Below are positions 22,579 to 50,399 of a stretch of 64,000 bases of DNA, in pieces. A program made the position numbers and the translations under genes. A model generated the notes under the pieces. That model searched no databases, was not told where the DNA came from, and saw only the letters and a program-made list of their open reading frames with translations. Positions within the stretch are counted from its first letter, which is position 1; every line of letters starts with the position of its first letter. This stretch comes from Tubulanus polymorphus (lineage: Eukaryota > Animalia > Nemertea): assembly GCF_964204645.1 (NCBI RefSeq), contig NC_134033.1:5294231-5358230 (forward strand), in the 5' to 3' direction.

Positions 22579-22697
<119 letters not shown>

Positions 22698-35277: not shown

Positions 35278-37338
35278 CTCAAAAACAATAAGGCCCCAGG
35301 CATTGATGGAATCACGAATGAGCTGTTGGGAGTTAGTCAGTATCCGTTTTTAGTTGATATATTACAAAAATTATTCAATTTAGTTCTTAAAACAGGATAT
35401 GTTCCAGAGATGTGGTCTATAGGCGTCATCAAACCCATTTTCAAAAAGAATGGCGATCCCTCTAATCCTGATAATTAGAGGTATTACCTTAGTTAGCTGT
35501 CAAAGATTGTCAACATTTCTAGATACGAATCACATTATAAGTGAAGCCCAGGCTGGCTTTAGATCGAAATATTCCACCATTGATCATATTTACACGCTTA
35601 AAACAATCGTAGAGCTGTATCTTTGTCAGGGAAGAAGTCTTTTTTGCGCCTTTGTTGATTTTAAGAAAGCTTTCGACTCGATTTGTAGGGTAAAGTTAGC
35701 CTATGGCGAAAATTAATTGCTAACAATGTTAATGGAAACTTTTTCAATGTGGTCAAAAATATGTATAACTCCATAAAATCATGTGTTGAATTAAATGGTT
35801 GCACCTCACAATACTTTGCAGCTGATAGAGGCTTAAGACAAGGCGAAAATCTCTTATCTATCCTCTTTTCGTTATTCTTAAACGACATTGAAGAATTTTT
35901 CATTGATCGTGGAAAACCGACTTTGTCATTTATAGAAAAACTAAATTTGAATCGTGATCAGGATATTGATACTTTACTGAATTTATTCATAATACTATAC
36001 GCAGATGATACAGTTATTCTTGCTGAGGATGAGAAATCTCTTCAGCTACACTTAGATACCTTATTTGAATATTGCGCGGCTAATGGTCTCACTGTTAACT
36101 CAGAGAAAACTAAAGTACTAGTATTTGCGCGAAGTAAATCCCGGATAAAAACGATTTCGAAATTTATGTTTGGTGATCAAGAGTTAGAGGTATGAAGATT
36201 ATGTTTATCTCGGAGTAAAATTCAATTGGAATGGTAACTTTGCTAAGGCAAAAAAGTATCTTTACGATAAAGCTATCAGAGCTATGTTTTCGATCGTTCA
36301 AAAAGGCAGACGTTTGAAATTGCCCATAGATGTTATGTTTAAATTATTTGATACGTGTGTTGCTCCAATAGCCATGTATGGGTGTGAGATCTGGGGATAC
36401 GAAAATCTTGATTTATTAGAAAATATTCATTGCTTCTTCTGTAAAATCTTAATGAAAGTGACGAAATATTCTCGCAACTTACAAGTTTTATCAGAGCTAG
36501 GACGTTACCCTTTGAATATAGATGTTAGACGCAGGATGATTAACTTTTGGGTTAAAACAGTATCTGGAAAGCAAACCAAACTTAATTCAATTCTCTATAA
36601 AATATCTTTCAATTTATTTTTAAGGGATAAATTTAAGAGCCCTTGGTTATCATATATAAAGAAAACGTTTGATGACTGTGGTTTGTCCTGCATTTGGACG
36701 CAGCAATTCATGACTAACAGTAAATCTTTTTCAAAACGAATAAACAGATACTCCGTGACCAGCACCTTCAAGAAACTTTATCTGCCATAAATACTAATCC
36801 GATATACACTAACTTTAGGCAATATAAAAATGATATTAGGTTAGAGAAGTATATAATAGAACTTGGTGATGACTTAGGAACTATTTTATTTGAATTTAGG
36901 GTCGGGTCCTATATTTTACCTGTGAACAAATTTTCAAACCTTCATTTAGACAGAGCCGATAGAATATGCCCCACTTGTAATACTTTAGGTGACGAATCCC
37001 ATTTTCTGTTAGACTGTACCTTACTTAACGAACAACGCAAAAACTTTTTGAATTTGAATACCTTAAATACCCTTGATATTCTGAAAAACCCAACGGTCAA
37101 CTTAGCTAAATTCAATAAGACCGGCTTAGATGTATATAGATCCCTCCAATAGTATATATATAGTATTGTAAATAGTTGATGTATATATATATTTCGTTAC
37201 GTTTTCATTCTCTAAATTTCTAATCACTTCAGTGTTGTTTTGTAAATATTTGTATATACATGTGTAATAGTTTTCCTCCATATACCATGGAAATGGTTGG
37301 AGTGTAAATAAATCGTAATCGTAATCGTAATCGTAATC
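35278..37338 (+). mobile_element. 5'-truncated, degenerate non-LTR retrotransposon (ORF2 RT; RTE-X/L2-group-like)
   Basis: KAPGIDG, QAGFR, FVDFKKAFDS, GLRQG, YADD motifs; C-terminal CxxC...H...C; stops and frameshifts; (AATCGT)n tail; candidate TSD GGTACA (35272-35277 / 37339-37344). Confidence 0.93.
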
Positions 37339-39768: not shown

Positions 39769-41684
39769 AGTAATAGGGAATAAGTTGTTTCATACCAAAG
39801 GTCGAAGGGTCGAGCTCATAAAAAATAAAAATAAATTCTCGCACGCTCGAATTTATTTTTTTATTTTTTACTCACTCGCCCCTTCAACCTTTGCTATGAA
39901 ACAACTTATTCCCCATTACTCTAATATTTTTATAAATTAAAAGAGTGAGTAAAGTGTGAGTAAATCATTTTCTGAATTAACTTTTTTATTCTTTATATTT
40001 CTGTGATTGTTTCCATTAAATTTTTTTCAATTTCTTATTCAATTTCGTATTTTCATTAATCAAATCCTTACTAATATTCTCGTAATAATAGTATAATGCA
40101 GCCAATATTAGCCCTCCAGCAACTAAATAATGCTTCAAATCACTTTTTCCAATAGGAATGCTATTAAAAGTAATTTGAAATATCTTATTTTGAATTACTC
40201 ATACAGCTTAATCTTATTTCAATATAGAATTATTATTCTTTCCATATTTGATATGTTTAATTGTCTGATAATGCTTTGATTTATGTGATTTTAAATATTT
40301 GCCGCCGCAATAACAATACACTTTTTCATTAGGATTGAATTTTCTAAATTCATCATCTAAATTACATAGAATTCCAATATCTTTATTAGAATTATTATTA
40401 ATTGATTCACATAGAATACCAATATTTGATGAATTATTATTATCTAAATCACATTGAATTCCAATATTTGATGAATTTTCATTATAGATAATTTGTTTAT
40501 TATCAAAAATAAAATAATATAATTGTCGTTTTTCAATTCTTAAGTTAATCTAATCGTTGTAACTTTTAGAAAGTATTAAATCACTATCTCTTTCATTAAA
40601 AGGAGTTTGAAGAATATCTATTATGTTTTCTACTAAAGTTCCTTTATAATTTAAAACTGTATCAAATATTTTAGGATTTTAACACCATTATCAAAAGTAT
40701 CTACTAGTTCAGTAATTAAATATGTTTCTTTTGATAATATTTGATTAATCATTGTAAGATTATCAATTTTATATGTCTGGGATATAATGTTTAATGTAAA
40801 ACTGTGAAAATAATTTATTGGTTTCTTTTATTTCGATTTTAAATTTGGTTTCTTCTTCTTCTTTCTTCATTTTTATAACAAGATTTTTATTGAAATAAAT
40901 CTAACTCATTCAAATATAAATATTCAATGTTAAAATATGAATTATTTCAATCACACTTTACTCACACTTTTATGTTTAAAAATCTAACTCATACAAATTT
41001 AAATATTAAAATATGTTTAAAATATAAAATTGATTCGATCACACTTTACTCACACTTTTTATGTAAAAAAAATTAAGAATCTAACGCATATAAATATAAA
41101 TATTCAATGTTTTAAATATGAATTATTTCAATCACACTTTACTCACACTTAAAAGTTGAAAAAAGAGTTAGAGTTTGCTGAAACCTTTCGCTCTAGAATA
41201 TTTTTTACCCCTTATTGGTTACTGAATGATTGATTACATGTATCACATTTATATGTTTCTTTTTCATTTAATTCTTCATAGTAATACATAAATATATCAT
41301 CTTTATATTCTAATTTCAATTTATTCTCTAAGTGAGATTTAATTTCATTATGTCTTGCTTTTTGAGATCTATCTATATTGATTTTACATGTTGGACAGTA
41401 GTACTTCTTATTTGCTTCAATTTTAATATCAAATTTTTTTATTATAATTGATTTTAGAAGTTATTCATATATAAATTATTCATTTATATATGTTATTCGT
41501 TTATATGTTATTCATACATATGGAATTATTAGAGTAATAGGGAATAAGTTGTTTCATATCAAAGGTTGAAGGGGTGAGTGAATAAAAAATAAAAAATAAA
41601 TTCGAGCGTGCGAGAATTTATTTTTCATTTTTTATGAGCTCGACCCTTCGACCTTTGGTATGAAACAACTTATTCCCTATTACT
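39769..41684. mobile_element. Non-autonomous Polinton/Maverick-related element with 152-bp palindromic TIRs
   Basis: AG...CT termini; 39769-39920 is the near reverse complement of 41533-41684; termini related to the 43751 element; decayed C2H2 zinc-finger segment (~41230-41440) homologous to ~49380-49600. Confidence 0.85.
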
Positions 41685-42720
41685 TCTAATAATGATGAAA
41701 CTTTCCGAATACATTTTTGACTTTTTTCCCCATAGAAATGAGATTTTTGTGGAAATTTACCCTCTTTTCTAGTAAACTGTATAATTTGTCCACATAACAG
41801 ATGAAGTAAACGAATCAAAGATTTTGACCTCCCATATCCCTGACTAGAGAGAATGATAGTTGGTATTGTTAGCGAACAGAGTCGCCGCACGACTGACTGG
41901 TCATCACAGTTTTGTTTTTGTATTGAGATGTACATTGAGAAAACCTGGCGGTATACGGGGGTGGCGATACATGGGAGGGCGGTATATCGGGGGTTGGCTG
42001 TAATTGTCATCATCTTGTCTCTGGTCTAACACGCTTTTGACGCATGTCATTTGGAATGTCCTGGCATGGAGTAAAGATGACAAGGCTTCCAGTACTCCAT
42101 CAAACGAGAACATTCATGGTCCTTGCCTACAAACGATCAGAGAACCCTTATTGATGATACTACACATGTACAAGGACACTGGGACATGGACGTATATGTT
42201 CTGCTAAGTTTTCGATTAAGTTTTGTTGAGTACCTGCTGAATCAGCAACTGAAGCAAAGCTAAATTGTGCCATGCCATACTTTCCTACATAATGTTGAGT
42301 TTGAAAATAAATTGTATCTTTTCGTTCGGTCACGATTATCTGTTTGTTAAACAGTATAAATGGAGCTGGTTCTATCGCTATTGGTCATCCAATGGAGGCG
42401 CTGACTGGTTCACAACAATGACCCTGGAATCAAAATGACTAAATCGAATCGAGACTTATTGGTGTAGTTTTCCTTCTAACGTAATTTTCTATCCATCTGT
42501 ATGAAAATTGAAGGCCTGTGGTAAGTGGAAATATGAGTTTGCGTTATTTTTCGACCACGCTGTTTAACAGCTTATAAATTTGTTGATGCAATACCGAAAA
42601 TTTAAATACACAATTCTATGATTTTACTAATTGGATTGGTTACTAAGTGGTAACCTTAGTAGATTTGAAAAGATCCTGTACGTGATAATTACGTACACTG
42701 GATTAGTAGATCTCTGGAAG

Positions 42721-43713
42721 ATGGCAGTCACTGATGCAAACTCGACAAACTCGACAGACGACACCGTTACAATTAGTCACATGCTTCTATCCGGTACGTG
42801 GCAGAACGCTGTTTGGTACACGTTCAATATTTACATATATTTCTGGATGGTGACCGGTGTTACCGGGGGTTTACTGTCTGCAGTCGTCATGTTCCGTCTG
42901 CGTCGCACGTTAGACGCGTGCACCTTCCAGTATTTGGTACCGCTAGCTTTCTCTGATTCGATTTATGTCGTCACTTTTTCGTTGAAGTCTCTTGAACGAA
43001 TTCACATCGTGGTCGGCACCGCGCACGGTGTGTACGTTTTCTACACCGTGAACGATTTCACCTGTAAATTTGGAATGGTGCTCAACAATTTCGGAATCAA
43101 AACCTCTACACGGATTCTGTCGTGTTTTGCCGTCGAACGCAGCATAGCCGTTTTGGTTACATTGCGAGTTGGGAGACTTATGACCCAGGCTCGCCGCCGG
43201 AATGTTATCGTATCGGTTTTTCTTTATCACGCCGTTACGGAAAGCGCCCAAGGAGTCACTTACCGCATCAAAACCATCGGGCTTGGTTTAAAAAACTGTC
43301 AAATGGACACCGTTTCAGAAGTCGTAGCACAAATCAACGTTATCTATTCTTACACGACGGTGACTATCATTCCTTGGGTTGGTTTGATATTTTCGACGGT
43401 TTTGATCGCTACTCAGTTCGCCAGACGAGATGTCAAGTTCAAAAACAAGAACACTTCCGAACAGGAACGCAGATGCGTGCGCAATCTGATTTGCATAATC
43501 ATAGCCTTTTTCGTATTCAACGCACCAATTACCGTATTGAACTTAGTTTACTTTACGTGTGACAAACTGAGGCATTTACCAAATCCAATACAGCATTTAT
43601 TCTACCTTATCGGCGGCGTTTTTATGATCACAAATAGTGCGGTTAATTTTTTCATATATATCGCGAATTTGAAGTCATTTCGAGACGAACTGGTGCGCAT
43701 AGTGAAACACTGA
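42721..43713 (+). CDS. Intronless rhodopsin-class (class A) GPCR, 330 aa, peptide-receptor/chemoreceptor-like
   Basis: Seven hydrophobic segments; LAFSD (TM2), C at the top of TM3, ERS at the DRY position, FVFNAP (TM6), NSAVNFFIY (TM7), FR in helix 8; N-terminal NST sequons. Confidence 0.92.
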   Translation: MAVTDANSTNSTDDTVTISHMLLSGTWQNAVWYTFNIYIYFWMVTGVTGGLLSAVVMFRLRRTLDACTFQYLVPLAFSDSIYVVTFSLKSLERIHIVVGTAHGVYVFYTVNDFTCKFGMVLNNFGIKTSTRILSCFAVERSIAVLVTLRVGRLMTQARRRNVIVSVFLYHAVTESAQGVTYRIKTIGLGLKNCQMDTVSEVVAQINVIYSYTTVTIIPWVGLIFSTVLIATQFARRDVKFKNKNTSEQERRCVRNLICIIIAFFVFNAPITVLNLVYFTCDKLRHLPNPIQHLFYLIGGVFMITNSAVNFFIYIANLKSFRDELVRIVKH

Positions 43714-43944
43714 GAACGGAGGCTCGAAAAGATCACATTTCCATATCATAAGTAATAGGGTATTAGTTGTTCTATACTAAAGGTCGAAAGGTAGAAAAAT
43801 AAATTCTCGCACACTCGAATTTATTTTTCGACCGTTCAACCTACCCTATTACTTCTATATAATTACAAGTCTCATAAATTTACAAGCCTCGACACGCTGA
43901 GTATTGCGTAATACATGTAGTTTTCTAGAATCATCCATTTAGAA

Positions 43945-44243
43945 AACTACATTAGCCAATCACAGTTGAGTATTACTCTAGCCAATCATAGTTGAGTATT
44001 CCCTATTACTCTATCCAATCACAGTTGAGTATTAATCTATCCAATCACAGTTGAGTATTCCCTATTACTCTAGCCATTCACAAGCCTCATAATTTACAAG
44101 CCTCAAAACGCAGCTGGGGATTCCCCACTGTTGAGTAGTATAAATAGGCGGGACTCACACGTGGCGGCGGTACGCGTTGAGAGGTAAGTGTCGAGAGGTA
44201 AGTGTTATGTTCAATTTTAATAAAAAAATTCGATATTAAAATG
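43945..44243 (+). promoter_or_regulatory. TIR-embedded promoter module (mirrored at ~49588-49890 on the minus strand)
   Basis: Tandem CCAATCACAGTTGAGTATT repeats, GGGGATTCCCC (44116-44126), TATAAA (44139-44144), CACGTG, AG|GTAAGT, ATG at 44241. Confidence 0.65.
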
Positions 44244-44289
44244 GAGAGTAAACAAGTACACAGTGAGAACAACAAATCATTTCTAGATA

Positions 44290-44697
44290 GATACTATTAT
44301 AGGATCGGCAATTGTTAACGCTTTGGCATTTACTGGTGGTGGATATTTATTTAAACATATTGATAAAAATAGTTCATTAGGAGAACAAAGAAGACATAAC
44401 TTAGCATTAGAGAAATATAATAAAGCTGCAGAAGAATATAGAGAAAAAAGACAAAACTATATGGATTACATCAATAAAGAATTATATAATCAGAAAATTA
44501 CACATAGAGATTTTCAATCAGTCGATGAAGCTATGAGTTTATATAACGCAGTAACAAATAAAGAAAAATTACATTTGTACAAACCTAAATTATCAAATTA
44601 TTATACCCCAAGTAAAGAACAACAAAAATATGAAATAATTTGGATTTTAGGTGGAACAGTTATTGTCATATTTGTTGCAAATAGATTTACTAATTAG
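44290..44697 (+). CDS. Element-encoded small protein: hydrophobic Gly-rich N-terminus, coiled coil, C-terminal TM; function unknown; start uncertain
   Basis: Open frame IIGSAIVNALAFTGGGYLF...EIIWILGGTVIVIFVA in otherwise stop-rich AT DNA. Confidence 0.7.
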   Translation, partial: DTIIGSAIVNALAFTGGGYLFKHIDKNSSLGEQRRHNLALEKYNKAAEEYREKRQNYMDYINKELYNQKITHRDFQSVDEAMSLYNAVTNKEKLHLYKPKLSNYYTPSKEQQKYEIIWILGGTVIVIFVANRFTN

Positions 44698-44716
44698 TAA
44701 TTTCTTTTCTAAATAA

Positions 44717-45125
44717 ATGGCTGATGAAGTTGATAATATTGATATTATTCCTCATGATATAAATAAAACTAAATTAAAATTATATTTGGAAAAACAAATA
44801 TTAGAATTTGAAAGTGACTTAAAGATAGAAAAAAAATATTTAAAATCTAAAATCAAATATTAGTGGTTCAGTTACAATTAGTTCTGTTATAACATTTTTA
44901 GCAATATTAACACCTTTATCTATATCAATTGGCGTGTTAGGATAAAGTTCAAGTGTTTTAACCGGAATAAGTTCAAAATTGAATATAAAAAAGTAATAAA
45001 GAAAAAATAAAATCTAATATAAAAGAAATTAATGAATCAAAAAATACATTAGATTATATAATAAGTTTAAATGGTAATATAACAGTTGAATAACAGGATA
45101 AATTATTAAAAGAATTAATAAATTA
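44717..45125 (+). pseudogene. Decayed element-encoded small membrane protein
   Basis: ATG 44717 MADEVDNIDIIPHD...; hydrophobic hairpin (ISGSVTISSVITFLAILTPLSISIGVLG) interrupted by stops and frameshifts. Confidence 0.45.
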
Positions 45126-45145
45126 TTAATTTTTTTATTATATAA

Positions 45146-45615
45146 ATGGTAGATAGTTTTCCAAAAGCTTTCCAATATAATAAATAAATTAAATATAATA
45201 TTCCTGCAATAGATTTTAATAAAGATATTTCATATAGGAATGAAGTTTTAAATTCATTAATTAATTTAGATATTTATGTTACTGAAACTAATAATTTCAA
45301 TGCAAAGATGGAAAATATAGTTCATGTATATTTAATTAATTTAAAAAAAATGAAAGATGAAAAACAATGGTTATTAAAATCTAATATGAAGTATTGGCAG
45401 AACAAATTAAATTTGCTGTTTATTGTGCTAAAACAGGATGTGGAATAAGTTGGAATGATCATTTGAATAATTCTAAATATAAATTAATTCAAAGTTTATT
45501 TAGATTCCATACTTATTTTCAAATAAGATTAATATTAAATGAATTAGTGACTCCTTTGCCAGAATCTAGATATTTTAAAGAATTAGATAATAATATTAAT
45601 TTAACAAATCTAACT
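45146..45615 (+). pseudogene. 5' fragment of an element-encoded protein with QIKFAVYCAKTGCGISW motif, truncated by the internal deletion
   Basis: ATG 45146 MVDSFPKAFQYN; protein-like frame 45394-45615 abutting the truncated PolB. Confidence 0.6.
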
Positions 45616-46402
45616 AAAAAAAATCCATTTTTATATCTGTAAATTTTAATCCACAATCCCAAGTTAAACCTGACACTAGAATAACAATGGCAAGGATCAA
45701 TATTAAAATATTTTAGATTTACGTCTCTAAACCTTTCAAATATATCAGTTAATAATATTACATCTGATTTTAGATATAAATCTACTAATTGTCCATGATT
45801 TTTTATTCCAAAATGATTCCAAATATTCAATGTTCTATTATATACTTCATCTTGAACATATTCATTTTTTAATTCATCATAGAATTGTTCTTTTAATAAT
45901 TCAGTGATATTGAAATCATTATGTGATTTATAAAATGAATATGGAATTGCGCCTCTATATCTCATTAATTGAAAATCATCATTATTTGGATAGTGTTGCT
46001 TTAATATTTTCAATTCATCATTATCTAATGAACTACCTAAAAATCTATATGAATCTATAAATCTTAGGCATCCAAATTGGAAAGATATATAATTCTCAGA
46101 TGTTTTATTAGCTAACTTTTTAAATTTATATGTTGGTATTTTATCTTTTGATCTATATGAATTTACTCTTTCCATTTCATTATTTTTGATGAATCTTTTT
46201 AATAGTATTTGAGGATCTGAATAATCAATTATATCATTTTCATAACAATTTAATATTTTTCTTTTATGATATATTCCTTTTCTATCTTGATCAGTTAGTT
46301 CTTTATTTAATGATTCAAAATCTCCATATATTACAAATGTTACTTTATTTTCGTAATTATATTTTTTGAATTCTAATACTTTATCCTTTTCATTTGGTAA
46401 AA

Positions 46403-48044
46403 CGGCCGAAGTCCGATATACGACATTATAGTGCAACGTGTAGAGATACTTTTGGAGTAAATCGGGGAATTAATGCGCAAGCTGAAATATAAAAGCGTAG
46501 TAATATGGAACTAAAAGAAGTTCCATGAAAATAGATCCTTGATTGGGGATCCATATTCTACAGCTGATGACCCGCAACACCTTACATACTAGGGTGATGA
46601 CTCTAAATGACGGTTGACAGATGACACCCAACACACCAGTTAGGTGACGACTCGACAGGACGGTTGACAGATGACACCCTACACACCAGTTAGGTGACGA
46701 CTCGACAGGACGGTTGACAGATGACACCATACACACCAGTTAGGTGACGAATCCACAGGACGGTTGACAGATGACACCCAACACACCAGTTAGGTGACGA
46801 CTCCACAGGACGGTTGACAGATGACACCCTACACACCAGTTAGGTGACGACTCCACAGGACGGTTGACAGGTGACACCATACACACCAGTTAGGTGACGA
46901 CTCCACAGGACGGTTGACAGATGACACCCTACACACCAGTTAGGTGACGACTCCACAGGACGGTTGACAGGTGGACACCCTGCACACCAGTTAGGTGACG
47001 ACTCCACAGGACGTTTGACATGTGACACCCTACACATCCTCCCTATGATAACCCAAGATGAACGACACGTCTGGATGCATTAGAAGAGAAAAAATTTCAT
47101 TAAAAAGTAAACGTCGTGGCCATCTGCAATTCGATCGAATTGAAACCCCACCGATACGATTACGAGCGCAGCGTCATACCACTAGACCAACGAGCTCGCT
47201 GACATCTAACGTGAAGGATAAACCCATAACGTGAAGTATAATGTTGTAACGTGAAGGATAAACTCATAACTTGAAGGATAATGTCATGACGTGAAGGATC
47301 AACTCACGTCATCAAGGATAAACCTATTATGTCACCAGATGGCGTGCCGGTCGGAAATAGACCGGCAACCAGTCTAAAATAATTTCGGTTAAAATGCAAA
47401 TTCATTTTATTCATCATACGATTCAAATTCAATTCAATTCAAAATAACTCTTTACGGTTAAGAAGCGTCGTAAGTTTTACGGCGGACGAGTGGAGGTTAA
47501 AAAAAGTTTATCTCGAAAAGTTTTGTATAGTATAATGTGCTCGAGTACTATTGTCTATTATGTATGGGGTACTTCTGCAATTCAGTAGGCTTAATAAAGT
47601 AATTAATGATTCTCTGTTAGTGTTGTTGGCCGACATATTTTGCGTGTAATTTTCCGCACCGGAAATCAAAATTACCTCCACTCCACCTTAGAAAAATACG
47701 CATTTTAATCGCAATTATTTTAGACTGGTTGCCGGTCTATATCCTTCACGTCAGATTAAGGTTGATCCTTCACGTCATGACATTATCCTTCACGTTATGA
47801 GTTTATCCTTCACGTTACTACATTATACTTCACGTTATGGGTTTATCTTTCACGTGATGACTTTAGCGTCTGTTTGGCGGGGATGGCCGCCCATAAAAGC
47901 CACACTGTAGTCATGGTTGACAGGTTGCCTCTCGTCGTTTACTCTAACTGTCAACTGTCAACTGTCAAACGCTGTTAACACTGACCGAAGAACGCAGTGT
48001 AACTCTACACACGCACTATAATGTCGTATACTGGACTAGCGCCG
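46403..48044. mobile_element. Non-coding TIR element nested in PolB
   Basis: ~45-bp imperfect TIR (CGGC..AGTCC..TATACGACATTATAGTGC..GTGTAGAG); 6-bp TSD GTAAAA (46397-46402 / 48045-48050); removal restores CKIVLPNEKDKV. Confidence 0.85.
46608..47035 (+). repeat. 50-bp minisatellite, ~8.5 units
   Basis: GACGGTTGACAGATGACACCCWACACACCAGTTAGGTGACGACTCSACAG. Confidence 0.95.
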
Positions 48045-49281
48045 GTAAAACTATTTTACAATAATCATGATTTTTCACATAATTGTTTATGATTCAATAA
48101 TGCACTTTCAGTTCTGAATTTAGTTATACATTTTCTACATAGATATATTTTATTATCAAAATCATTTTCTGATTTAAAACTAAATCAATGCGTTTTATCC
48201 ACATATAATGATTCTCATAATATAATATATCTATAACATCATTTGAATCATAATCTTTTGATAGGTATAGAGGTTTTAATGTAAAATGTTTAATATTGTT
48301 ACCTTTTGTTTTTGGTAATTTGACTAAATCAAACACATTTATCTTTATATTATTATCTCTTTCTATTTTTGGAATATTTTTAATTCTAACAGGATAATAA
48401 TCTATCTTATAATTATTTTCAAATGGTTTATAATTTGTTAATCTAAAACTATGAGTAATATCTTCTGTTGGATGTAAACAACTAGTAATTGACCATAGAA
48501 AACATTTATTATCTTCATTTTGAACATTTATTACTGCTTTCGTTGTGAATGGTAATTAGCTTGTTGCATTTATATTATCATCTTTATAATATGATGAATT
48601 ATTTTCATCAATTGGTTTTGATTTAGTTAGCTTATTATATTTTGTGTTATAAACATGATAAGTCATAAATATTATTTCATCGAATATTAAACCTGATCCT
48701 TCAAAGTATTTCTCTTCTATTTTACTTTTTATTTCATTATAACATTTATCTAATTTATCTATATGTTGTTTAGATATAATATGTTGTGAATGAGAATTTA
48801 TATTATATATTGGTTTATCTTCAGATTTTATAAATTAAACTTTAGAAGATATACTAATTTTAGGGTATTCAACATCTGTAATTATTTTAATAATATTTTT
48901 CATATTTTCTAAATGTTTTTTATTTTCTTCTTATGTTTTTCCTTTATGAAATTTAAACTCGATAGCTTTTGGACCAATATCACTTTTAAATGCTTCAGTT
49001 ATTTCTATTTCTTTTTTATTATCTAATGAATGAATATAATTTCTTACATCTTCCATGTATGGCGTTTTATTGTTTATTTTATTTTTTATTCTTTTAATTG
49101 TCTTCTGTTTCTTATCATTATCATTATCAAAATAATCTTCACCTAAAATATCATGATTAATAGAACGATAACCACACTCAAACGTGGTGAACGGATAATA
49201 AGATCGTCACGACGATGATCTCTAGGGTGAGATCGTCGTGTCTTTTATATATTTTAGATTGAATAAATAAATTTCTGGTTT

Positions 49282-49590
49282 TTAAATTCTTTTAATCTGT
49301 AAATAGTGGGATTTTATCTTATTATCATTATTAATATTTCTAATATGACTTTTAGATTTTAAATGTTCTTTATAATATCTTTTATCACTGAATGATTGAT
49401 TACATGTATCACATTTGTATGTTTCTTTTTCATTCTTCAATTCATCTAATTTAGTTTCTAATATATCATCTTTATATTCTAAGTTTAATTTATTCTCTAA
49501 ATGTGATTTGGTTTTATTATATCTTGCTTTTTGAGATTTATCTATATTGATTTTACATGTTGGGCAGTAGTACTTCTTATTTGCTTCCAT
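49282..49590 (-). CDS. Element-encoded C2H2-type zinc-finger ORF (possibly the 5' end of the PolB reading frame)
   Basis: MEANKKYYCPTC...KSH and YKCDTC...HLKSKSH; ATG lies at the inner edge of the right TIR. Confidence 0.7.
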   Translation of the reverse strand: MEANKKYYCPTCKINIDKSQKARYNKTKSHLENKLNLEYKDDILETKLDELKNEKETYKCDTCNQSFSDKRYYKEHLKSKSHIRNINNDNKIKSHYLQIKRI

Positions 49591-50399
49591 TTTAATATCA
49601 AATTTTTTATTAAAATTGAACATAACACTTACCTTTCAACGCGTCCCGCCGCCACGTGTGAGTCCCGCCTATTTATACTACTCAACCATGGGGAATCCCC
49701 AGCTGCGTGTTGAGGCTTGTAAATTATGAGGCTTGTGATTGGCTGGAGTAATAGGGAATACTCAACTGTGATTGGATAGATTAATACTCAACTGTGATTA
49801 GATAGAGTAATAGGGAATACTCAACTGTGATTGGCTGGAAATACTCAACTGTGATTGGCTATAGTAATACTCAACTGTGATTGGCTAATGTAGTTTTCTA
49901 GATGGATGGTTCTAGAAAACTACAGGTATTACGCAATACTCAGCGTGTTGAGGCTTGTAGATTATGAGACTTGTAATTATATAGAAGTAATAGGGTATTA
50001 GTTGTTTTGTATCAAAAGTTGAATAGTCGAAAAATAAATTCGAGTGTGCGAGAATTTATTTTTTGACCTTTCGATCTTTGGTATAGAACAACTAATACCC
50101 TCTATCATAATCCATAAAACGTAAATAGTTCTTGAAACTACTAATTTATTAGGTTATATTTTACCTAATGAAGATCCTTTACATTACTAGCAAGTGTCTT
50201 AACCTATCTCTACTGATTTAACACTAGGTTAAGGCGGCTCCTCTACGAAAATAGATAATCATGATGATTTTTTTATTCAATTTCAAAACCTTAATATTGC
50301 AGTATCTGGTAAACTGTTCCACGAGGATGGTGCAGCAAAAATGATACATCGATTGCTATAAAAAAACCCGTTCCGGAATTAACTTGAAAAAATGTGACA

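Follow-up and report, generated by a model that had tools for sequence, protein, structure and literature searches.

Does an inserted element whose two ends fold back on themselves belong to a known family of animal transposons, and what could such ends serve for? The question is raised by a 64,000-nt stretch of the genome of the nemertean Tubulanus polymorphus (the window; assembly GCF_964204645.1, contig NC_134033.1, positions 5,294,231 to 5,358,230), in which the element E1 occupies positions 43751-50103 and carries pieces of a family B DNA polymerase (PolB). E1 is very probably a non-autonomous, centre-deleted copy of a Polinton (Maverick) of the Beta/group-1 type. The copy is a dead, ordinary-looking Polinton derivative; its conserved hairpin ends are real, and comparison of copies and relatives indicates that an imperfect hairpin of 100-260 nt at the tips of the terminal inverted repeats (TIRs) is a trait of the family.

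E1 lies between two copies of ATCATA, a 6-bp target-site duplication (TSD). It starts with AG and ends with CT, the right tip being 4 nt short, and its TIRs of ~500 bp each are identical at 464 of 491 ungapped columns (94.5%). The original prediction, made from the letters alone, had read the TSD, the ends, the missing 4 nt and the repeats in this way, and the alignment bears it out. Both TIRs extend inward up to the first ATG on their side and have a TATA box ~390 bp in. An additional 37-nt hairpin is found in each TIR (43915-43951 and 49888-49924), followed towards the first ATG by CCAAT-like tandem repeats and the TATA box. The 6-bp TSD, TIRs with AG...CT, a protein-primed PolB (pPolB) with terminal-protein and viral OTU (vOTU) motifs, and inward-directed modules are the features expected of a Polinton; TSD, TIRs, ends, broken PolB and relatives all agree with the Polinton-like identity proposed at first. 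The boundaries proposed for the element stood, but 1,640 bp between them belong to an unrelated, Merlin-like insertion, so that the element proper measures 4,705 bp (~4.7 kb).

Folding against shuffled sequences confirms the imperfect palindromes that had been noticed at the two ends of E1 (103 and 118 nt). The folding energies of these hairpins are -25.3, -22.8 and -28.2 kcal/mol and the z-scores -8.9, -7.8 and -9.5, and in every test all 200 shuffles folded less well. The raw energy is not unusual, -22.8 kcal/mol being also reached by 5 of 390 other 118-nt stretches of the window, and the case for the hairpins rests therefore on position and z-score. The left palindrome is not complete: 19 nt of its inner arm are gone, and this deletion accounts for the side stem found there. 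The right end of E1 and both ends of E2, a second member of the family in the window, form a plain stem with a 10-nt loop that is not Y-shaped. The 3'-terminal strand is the better-folding one at all four ends in the window, and stem mismatches read as G.T on this strand 17 times versus 3, in a count where the ends are not independent. In the hairpins of E1 and E2, mirroring is most exact over the outermost 21-26 nt.

E2 lies ~2 kb to the left of E1 and was overlooked in the first reading. Its PolB N-terminal fragment is 88% identical to that of E1, and its hairpins have the same tips and nearly the same loop. Its TIR hardly exceeds the hairpin in length, and the 6-bp TSD present at E1 is absent here. 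On the host side of the right tip of E2, following one additional base, 8 nt of the E2 interior recur in mirror image, which may be a trace of fold-back extension or due to chance. Raw reads of the same organism cover the interior of E1 at a depth of 330-1,120 versus 4-7 on the flanks; by this measure the family has roughly 50-250 copies at no less than 85% identity. The hairpin core is ~300 times deeper than the flank, so that most ends (about 300) seem to share this core while the arms vary by subfamily; the loop varies at just two positions among the 40 of 83 difference rows listed.

Relatives were taken from metagenomes (best 80 of 266 loci). Sequence upstream of PolB is present in three close ones: L004, from another dataset, has a whole 257-nt hairpin with the tips of E1 and another loop (z -13.5); contig L001 begins within a hairpin whose inner arm closes with the same tip; L005 has a stretch like the outer arm, without fold-back. 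In the first 28 nt, both arms have changed at 3 of 24 paired positions between E1 and E2, at 9 of 22 between E1 and L004 and at 8 of 25 between E2 and L004, counts from an ungapped comparison that small insertions or deletions may inflate. The arms also lengthen together, from 103 to 257 nt across E1, E2 and L004. Arms that change and lengthen together rule out independent miniature inverted-repeat transposable elements (MITEs) and suggest that the stems form in vivo. Palindromic MITEs sitting by accident at the ends, which the original prediction had named as an alternative, were rejected also on position: the hairpins are flush with the ends in all four cases in the window, share the tip of the element and precede PolB in L001 and L004. 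The palindromes are conserved at the ends of other copies, in E2, the reads, L001 and L004. Beyond these relatives, scans of viral contigs with a small open reading frame (ORF) and with the alignment of this ORF, with a single PolB and with two patterns for the hairpin detected no relative, and one hairpin pattern had no match across 104 loci. A search with the PolB alignment led to 24 distant viral loci, most of which stop before the element ends; one of them (L103) has both terminal repeats and no terminal hairpin, at tips that may not be the true ones. Hairpins seen in the distant L032, L035, L037, L038, L046 and L062 are unrelated, being within genes or without Polinton-like tips.

The palindrome could be a neutral by-product, made by accidental fold-back and kept symmetrical by routine mismatch repair. 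Its length of 103-257 nt, the loops that differ between E1/E2 and L004 and the lack of fold-back in L005 are compatible with such an origin, and accidental annealing is named as an alternative in passages of a preprint on Halocafeteria elements (bioRxiv 10.64898/2026.07.28.741278). We hold it for decidedly improbable: the tips are kept although PolB diverges by ~20%, separate lineages show the same mismatches between the arms, and a near-invariant core is common to about 300 ends.

The pieces of PolB in E1 read inward from the right, as predicted, and share 52-82% identity with three relatives that are full-length (1,319-1,365 aa). About 150 aa, comprising an HNH/EndoVII-like domain and Exo II, are gone near 46200; read depth is 49 at this internal junction versus ~400 around it, showing that most copies differ there. 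On the left side a 17-codon stub is fused to a 136-aa ORF, and 667 reads break at 44293, indicating that the upstream sequence differs in other copies. The left ORFs, first described as unknown, do read inward; the stub resembles, however, an ORF of L004, and another of them has a homolog in L007. The deletion of the centre of E1 and the lack of integrase, ATPase, protease and capsid genes had been correctly noted: no rve integrase, packaging ATPase, protease or capsid gene was found in the window copy, nor any gene for NS1 HUH/SF3 or a PLA2 capsid. An NS1-like helicase and a single-jelly-roll capsid protein, which go with segmented ssDNA in the Bidnaviridae, were found neither in this copy nor on the close contigs, all of them incomplete. 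A small ORF lies between the terminal hairpin and PolB in L004 (571-936) and L001 (338-724). Its product might have an OB fold like single-stranded DNA-binding (SSB) proteins, a weak resemblance to be taken as a lead only: the structural model is poor (pLDDT 54) and gave no Foldseek match at E 0.001, the best Z being 5.2. Unnamed clusters similar to this ORF are mostly eukaryotic in Atlas. An HNH-like ORF follows PolB in three close relatives (L001:4842-5612, L002:4079-4849, L004:5129-5833) as seen by eye, the L002 copy having no Pfam match.

Sequence comparison assigns the polymerase of the E1 family to the Beta/group-1 Polinton pPolBs. Nine of ten close full-length PolBs have no match to PF03175 (E 0.01), which fits the Beta class as delimited in passages of PMC8502044, where the bidnavirus PolB is tied to the Alpha class instead. 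In the relative L002, with 80% nucleotide identity over PolB, the polymerase gene is followed by an rve integrase (E 6.5e-9, above the cut-off). In a quick tree of 97 rows the PolB piece of the window groups with P0017 and L001 (97) and with L005 (98); the rows are without L004/P0016, L007 and others (length filter), L002/L003 (near copies) and any bidnavirus. P0023, a PolB of the sister clade, harbours at polymerase motif C an intein that contains a LAGLIDADG-like domain.

The PolB of L004 is intact, and its N-terminus was modelled from an alignment of 25 rows (pLDDT 79). Its best viral structure match is Drosophila adintovirus 2 (E 7.8e-18), followed by a MELD virus and then by PolBs labelled as densoviral (E 5e-8 to 3e-6). 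Residues 45-161 match in fold the little finger found in Y-family polymerases (Z 8.1, root-mean-square deviation 3.2, 103 residues aligned) and residues 192-322 a viral OTU (Z 7.2, deviation 3.4, 102 aligned). A little-finger-like first domain followed by an OTU is the signature of terminal protein and vOTU given in passages of PMC11161782. At the position predicted to form the link, in the loop that precedes the last strand, no fewer than 90% of the 25 rows retain a serine; the vOTU cysteine is invariant and the histidine kept in at least 90%. L004 thus keeps a predicted terminal-protein domain with its priming serine and, having also a whole hairpin, it unites the hairpin and an intact machinery for protein priming within a single natural element. 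All six full-length relatives checked have an intact HNH/EndoVII-like motif, and an EndoVII-like domain is also frequent in distant PolBs (PF02945 rows).

The original prediction had seen in E1 the relic of an integrating virus lineage joining Polinton, densovirus and bidnavirus features. The likeness to the densovirus JcDNV (PMC3738899) is real, with an inverted terminal repeat ~550 nt long (547 nt), a terminal hairpin of ~130 nt and TATA at each repeat's inner edge, and densovirus-labelled PolBs are among the structure matches. These rank, however, under adintovirus 2 and the MELD virus. JcDNV has Y-shaped hairpins in flip and flop forms and genes for an NS1 helicase and a PLA2 capsid, whereas E1 has a plain rod of one polarity, a pPolB and a TSD; the TIR of E2, moreover, barely exceeds its hairpin. 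The bidnaviruses or bidnaparvoviruses share with the E1 family a pPolB with terminal-protein and OTU-like domains and inverted repeats, according to passages of PMC8502044 and PMC11161782. Their PolB is Alpha-like with an inactive vOTU; that of the E1 family is Beta-like and keeps the cysteine and the histidine, in elements integrated with a TSD. The ambisense arrangement taken for a virus-like sign is the standard one, vertebrate Mavericks having two gene modules on different strands that point to the centre (passages of PMC8097293), which makes the layout of E1 ordinary. The integrase is of the Polinton type, rve. A search for flip and flop isomers had been suggested. One loop orientation is found at all four ends in the window and the arm signature has the same polarity in L001, L004 and L005, so none was seen at seven of seven informative ends; under independent flipping such agreement has a chance of 1 in 64, the ends of one element being possibly dependent. 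A set of 26 reads discussed below is ambiguous in this respect. With a Beta-like PolB, a standard inward layout and a single polarity at the informative ends, the hybrid lineage is highly improbable.

The E1 family shares with Polintons and Mavericks of the Beta adintovirus/group-1 type, as described in passages of PMC8097293, PMC8502044 and PMC11161782, the 6-bp TSD and TIRs of some hundred bp, together with the terminal-protein-vOTU-exonuclease-polymerase order of PolB, rve (in the close relative L002) and inward genes. The AG...CT ends, with AGTAAT as the tip of E1, come close to the (AGT)2 motif of Polintons given in PMC8097293. What differs is that the AGTAAT tip is repeated inside as a hairpin of 103-257 nt; the passages of these three papers make no mention of a terminal hairpin. 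E1 without its nested insertion is also much shorter (4.7 kb) than intact vertebrate Polintons (12.7-24.6 kb). Palindromes in TIRs adjoining TSDs are reported for Halocafeteria seosinensis virophages and polinton-like virus (PLV) subtype 4 in passages of the preprint cited above, mostly with replication genes other than pPolB, and hairpin priming is proposed for them. E1 has in common with these elements the palindrome beside the TSD, and its relative L002 the rve integrase. The palindrome is 52 nt long in the subtype figured, in a protist host and mainly with non-pPolB genes, whereas the E1 family has a pPolB in an animal genome; the preference for a non-pPolB gene does not extend to the hairpin-bearing L004 and L001, which carry a pPolB with predicted terminal protein. 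Casposons (passages of PMC4046053) are likewise self-synthesizing pPolB elements with palindromes in some TIRs; they differ in being prokaryotic, in using Cas1 as integrase and in having these palindromes internal to the TIR. The Halocafeteria preprint is the single direct report of Polinton-type terminal palindromes found in our literature search, which found no report of terminal hairpins or palindromes in animal pPolB Polintons and did not extend to the founding Polinton/Maverick papers, Repbase and supplements. The word 'hairpin' is absent from PMC8502044, 10.1101/2023.08.22.554363, PMC8363768, 10.1101/2024.01.15.575659 and PMC3014272; PMC12747079 and 10.64898/2026.10.13.758929 speak of hairpins or palindromes with regard to other matters. 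As far as these sources go, terminal palindromes were already known in protist virophages and PLVs, mostly without pPolB, and such hairpins on the ends of animal pPolB Polintons seem to be new.

When a linear genome replicates by protein priming, the strand that is displaced has to acquire a duplex origin again, which adenovirus achieves by pairing of the two ends. We favour, at slightly less than even confidence, the hypothesis that the hairpin of the E1 family provides this origin locally. Intact family members would supply pPolB and integrase in trans, leading to the 6-bp TSD, and pPolB would copy from the terminal protein, displacing one strand. Since the tip sequence recurs in the inner arm, the 3' end is able to form a fold-back; the 3' tip of the displaced strand would pair with the inner arm and form a local duplex origin for terminal-protein priming. 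Each end would rebuild its origin by itself, with no need for the two genome ends to pair. Copying of tip, loop and inner arm in this order would keep the polarity of the hairpin, and therefore no flip and flop would arise. This sequence of events accords with a serine that is retained, a tip that is mirrored and a polarity that does not vary.

Several points weigh against the fold-back origin or the evidence for it. Many pPolB elements have no terminal hairpins, so hairpins are not required in general, and their role in priming is one that we infer from sequence. The G.T bias could stem from CpG decay, and structure Z-scores of 7-8 are middling. Only one of the three close relatives has a whole hairpin; one has a part and one none that folds. 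Capsid, ATPase and protease genes are found in no close relative, on contigs that are too short (5.9-7.2 kb). Finally, 26 reads have an opposite-strand joint 49985-50095 (depth ~150), which may come from flop ends or from a subfamily whose arms are more symmetric; on their shorter side these reads have at most 30 letters, which leaves the loop unlinked to the joint.

The same fold-back, flush and with its 3' OH facing the interior, could instead prime the second strand directly in parvovirus style, the closed end being cut later, perhaps by the HNH/EndoVII-like domain of PolB; protein priming would act at one step and hairpin priming at another. The better folding of the 3'-terminal strand is in line with this, as is the HNH/EndoVII-like motif intact in all six relatives; the same model is proposed for the Halocafeteria elements in the passages of the preprint. 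The conserved arm mismatches recall the asymmetric left end of parvoviruses, which is resolved at a single side and for which flip is the only form reported (passages of PMC1185569). The 8-nt mirror and missing TSD of E2 point the same way, as one case considered post hoc. Self-priming would leave unexplained that the terminal-protein serine and the vOTU are kept, and it needs a resolvase. No HUH/NS1-like protein is seen, and the EndoVII-like domain is common in distant PolBs and so not tied to hairpins. The single polarity at seven of seven ends would demand an additional asymmetric step. We regard this reading as possible but on balance unlikely. More specifically, this clade of animal Polintons may use a mixed route, in which the terminal protein primes the first strand and the terminal hairpin the second, and the PolB nuclease resolves one side only, guided by the conserved arm mismatches; so complete a scheme is doubtful. 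If true, a single integrating element would combine replication primed by a protein with replication primed by a hairpin.

A role other than priming, in excision or tip repair, is improbable: a cruciform at the junction with the host would be cut, or the inner arm would serve to restore a tip that had been trimmed. The exact mirroring of the outermost 21-26 nt in E1 and E2 would suit this role, and the removal of the terminal protein before integration is a step left unexplained in passages of PMC11161782. The right tip of E1, short by 4 nt, has on the other hand not been repaired.

To our knowledge, it has never been demonstrated by what route Polintons exit the chromosome, how their replication begins and how the ends are made ready for integration. 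Conserved hairpin ends of fixed polarity, beside a pPolB with predicted terminal protein, offer defined short substrates on which protein and hairpin priming could be tested against each other. The E1 family also qualifies the printed report on palindromes, which linked them mainly to non-pPolB elements. The coordinates of its parts in the window are collected in Table 1.

Table 1. Features of E1, of its nested insertion and of E2 (positions in the window)
Feature	Position	Strand	Details
Left TSD	43745..43750		6 bp
Left TIR	43751..44250	+	Hairpin, 37-nt hairpin, CCAAT-like tandem repeats, TATA at 44139, first ATG at 44241
Left terminal hairpin	43751..43853		103 nt, 10-nt loop; inner arm short by 19 nt
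Stub of first left gene	44241..44291	+	17 codons; like start of the 121-aa OB-fold-like ORF of L004 (SSB-like, weak); deletion junction next
Conserved small ORF, 136 aa	44287..44697	+	Start lost here; 15 homologs, 30-77% identical
Decayed ORF	44718..45120	+	Stops and frameshifts
Decayed ORF	45147..45642	+	Homolog of 440-aa ORF near PolB in L007, E 7e-12
PolB piece	45620..46403	-	Exo I and Exo III motifs; ends ahead of polymerase motif A
Nested non-coding insertion	46404..48043		1,640 bp; GG...CC ends, ~40-bp TIRs, 8-bp TSD (46396-46403, 48044-48051)
PolB N-terminal part	48052..49590	-	Zinc fingers, terminal-protein GSG loop, vOTU Cys and His motifs; frameshifted, stops
Right TIR	49580..50103	-	TATA at 49670-49677; PolB ATG at inner edge
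Right terminal hairpin	49986..50103		118 nt; tip 4 nt short
Right TSD	50104..50109		6 bp
E2, second family member	39769..41684		1.9 kb; 152-nt hairpins 39769-39920 and 41533-41684; no TSD

The nested insertion splits PolB and is unrelated to E1. It contains 50-bp and 20-bp tandem repeats, and an internal inverted pair of 95 bp is built of the 20-bp repeats. Merlin elements have 5'-GG termini, TIRs of 24-462 bp and a TSD of 8-9 bp according to passages of PMC8101967; termini, TIRs and TSD of the insertion agree with these features, and it is Merlin-like by them, non-autonomous and without transposase.

An intronless frame for a G-protein-coupled receptor of the rhodopsin family (7tm_1, E 1e-15) at 42631-43713 stops 37 bp short of E1; a receptor of this kind indicates an animal host. 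Read depth across it is uneven, which membership in a multi-copy family may explain. Broken reverse-transcriptase-like frames recognized by eye at 35689-37152 indicate an element of the long interspersed nuclear element (LINE) type, and an unrelated, near-perfect palindrome of 102 nt lies at 22596-22697.

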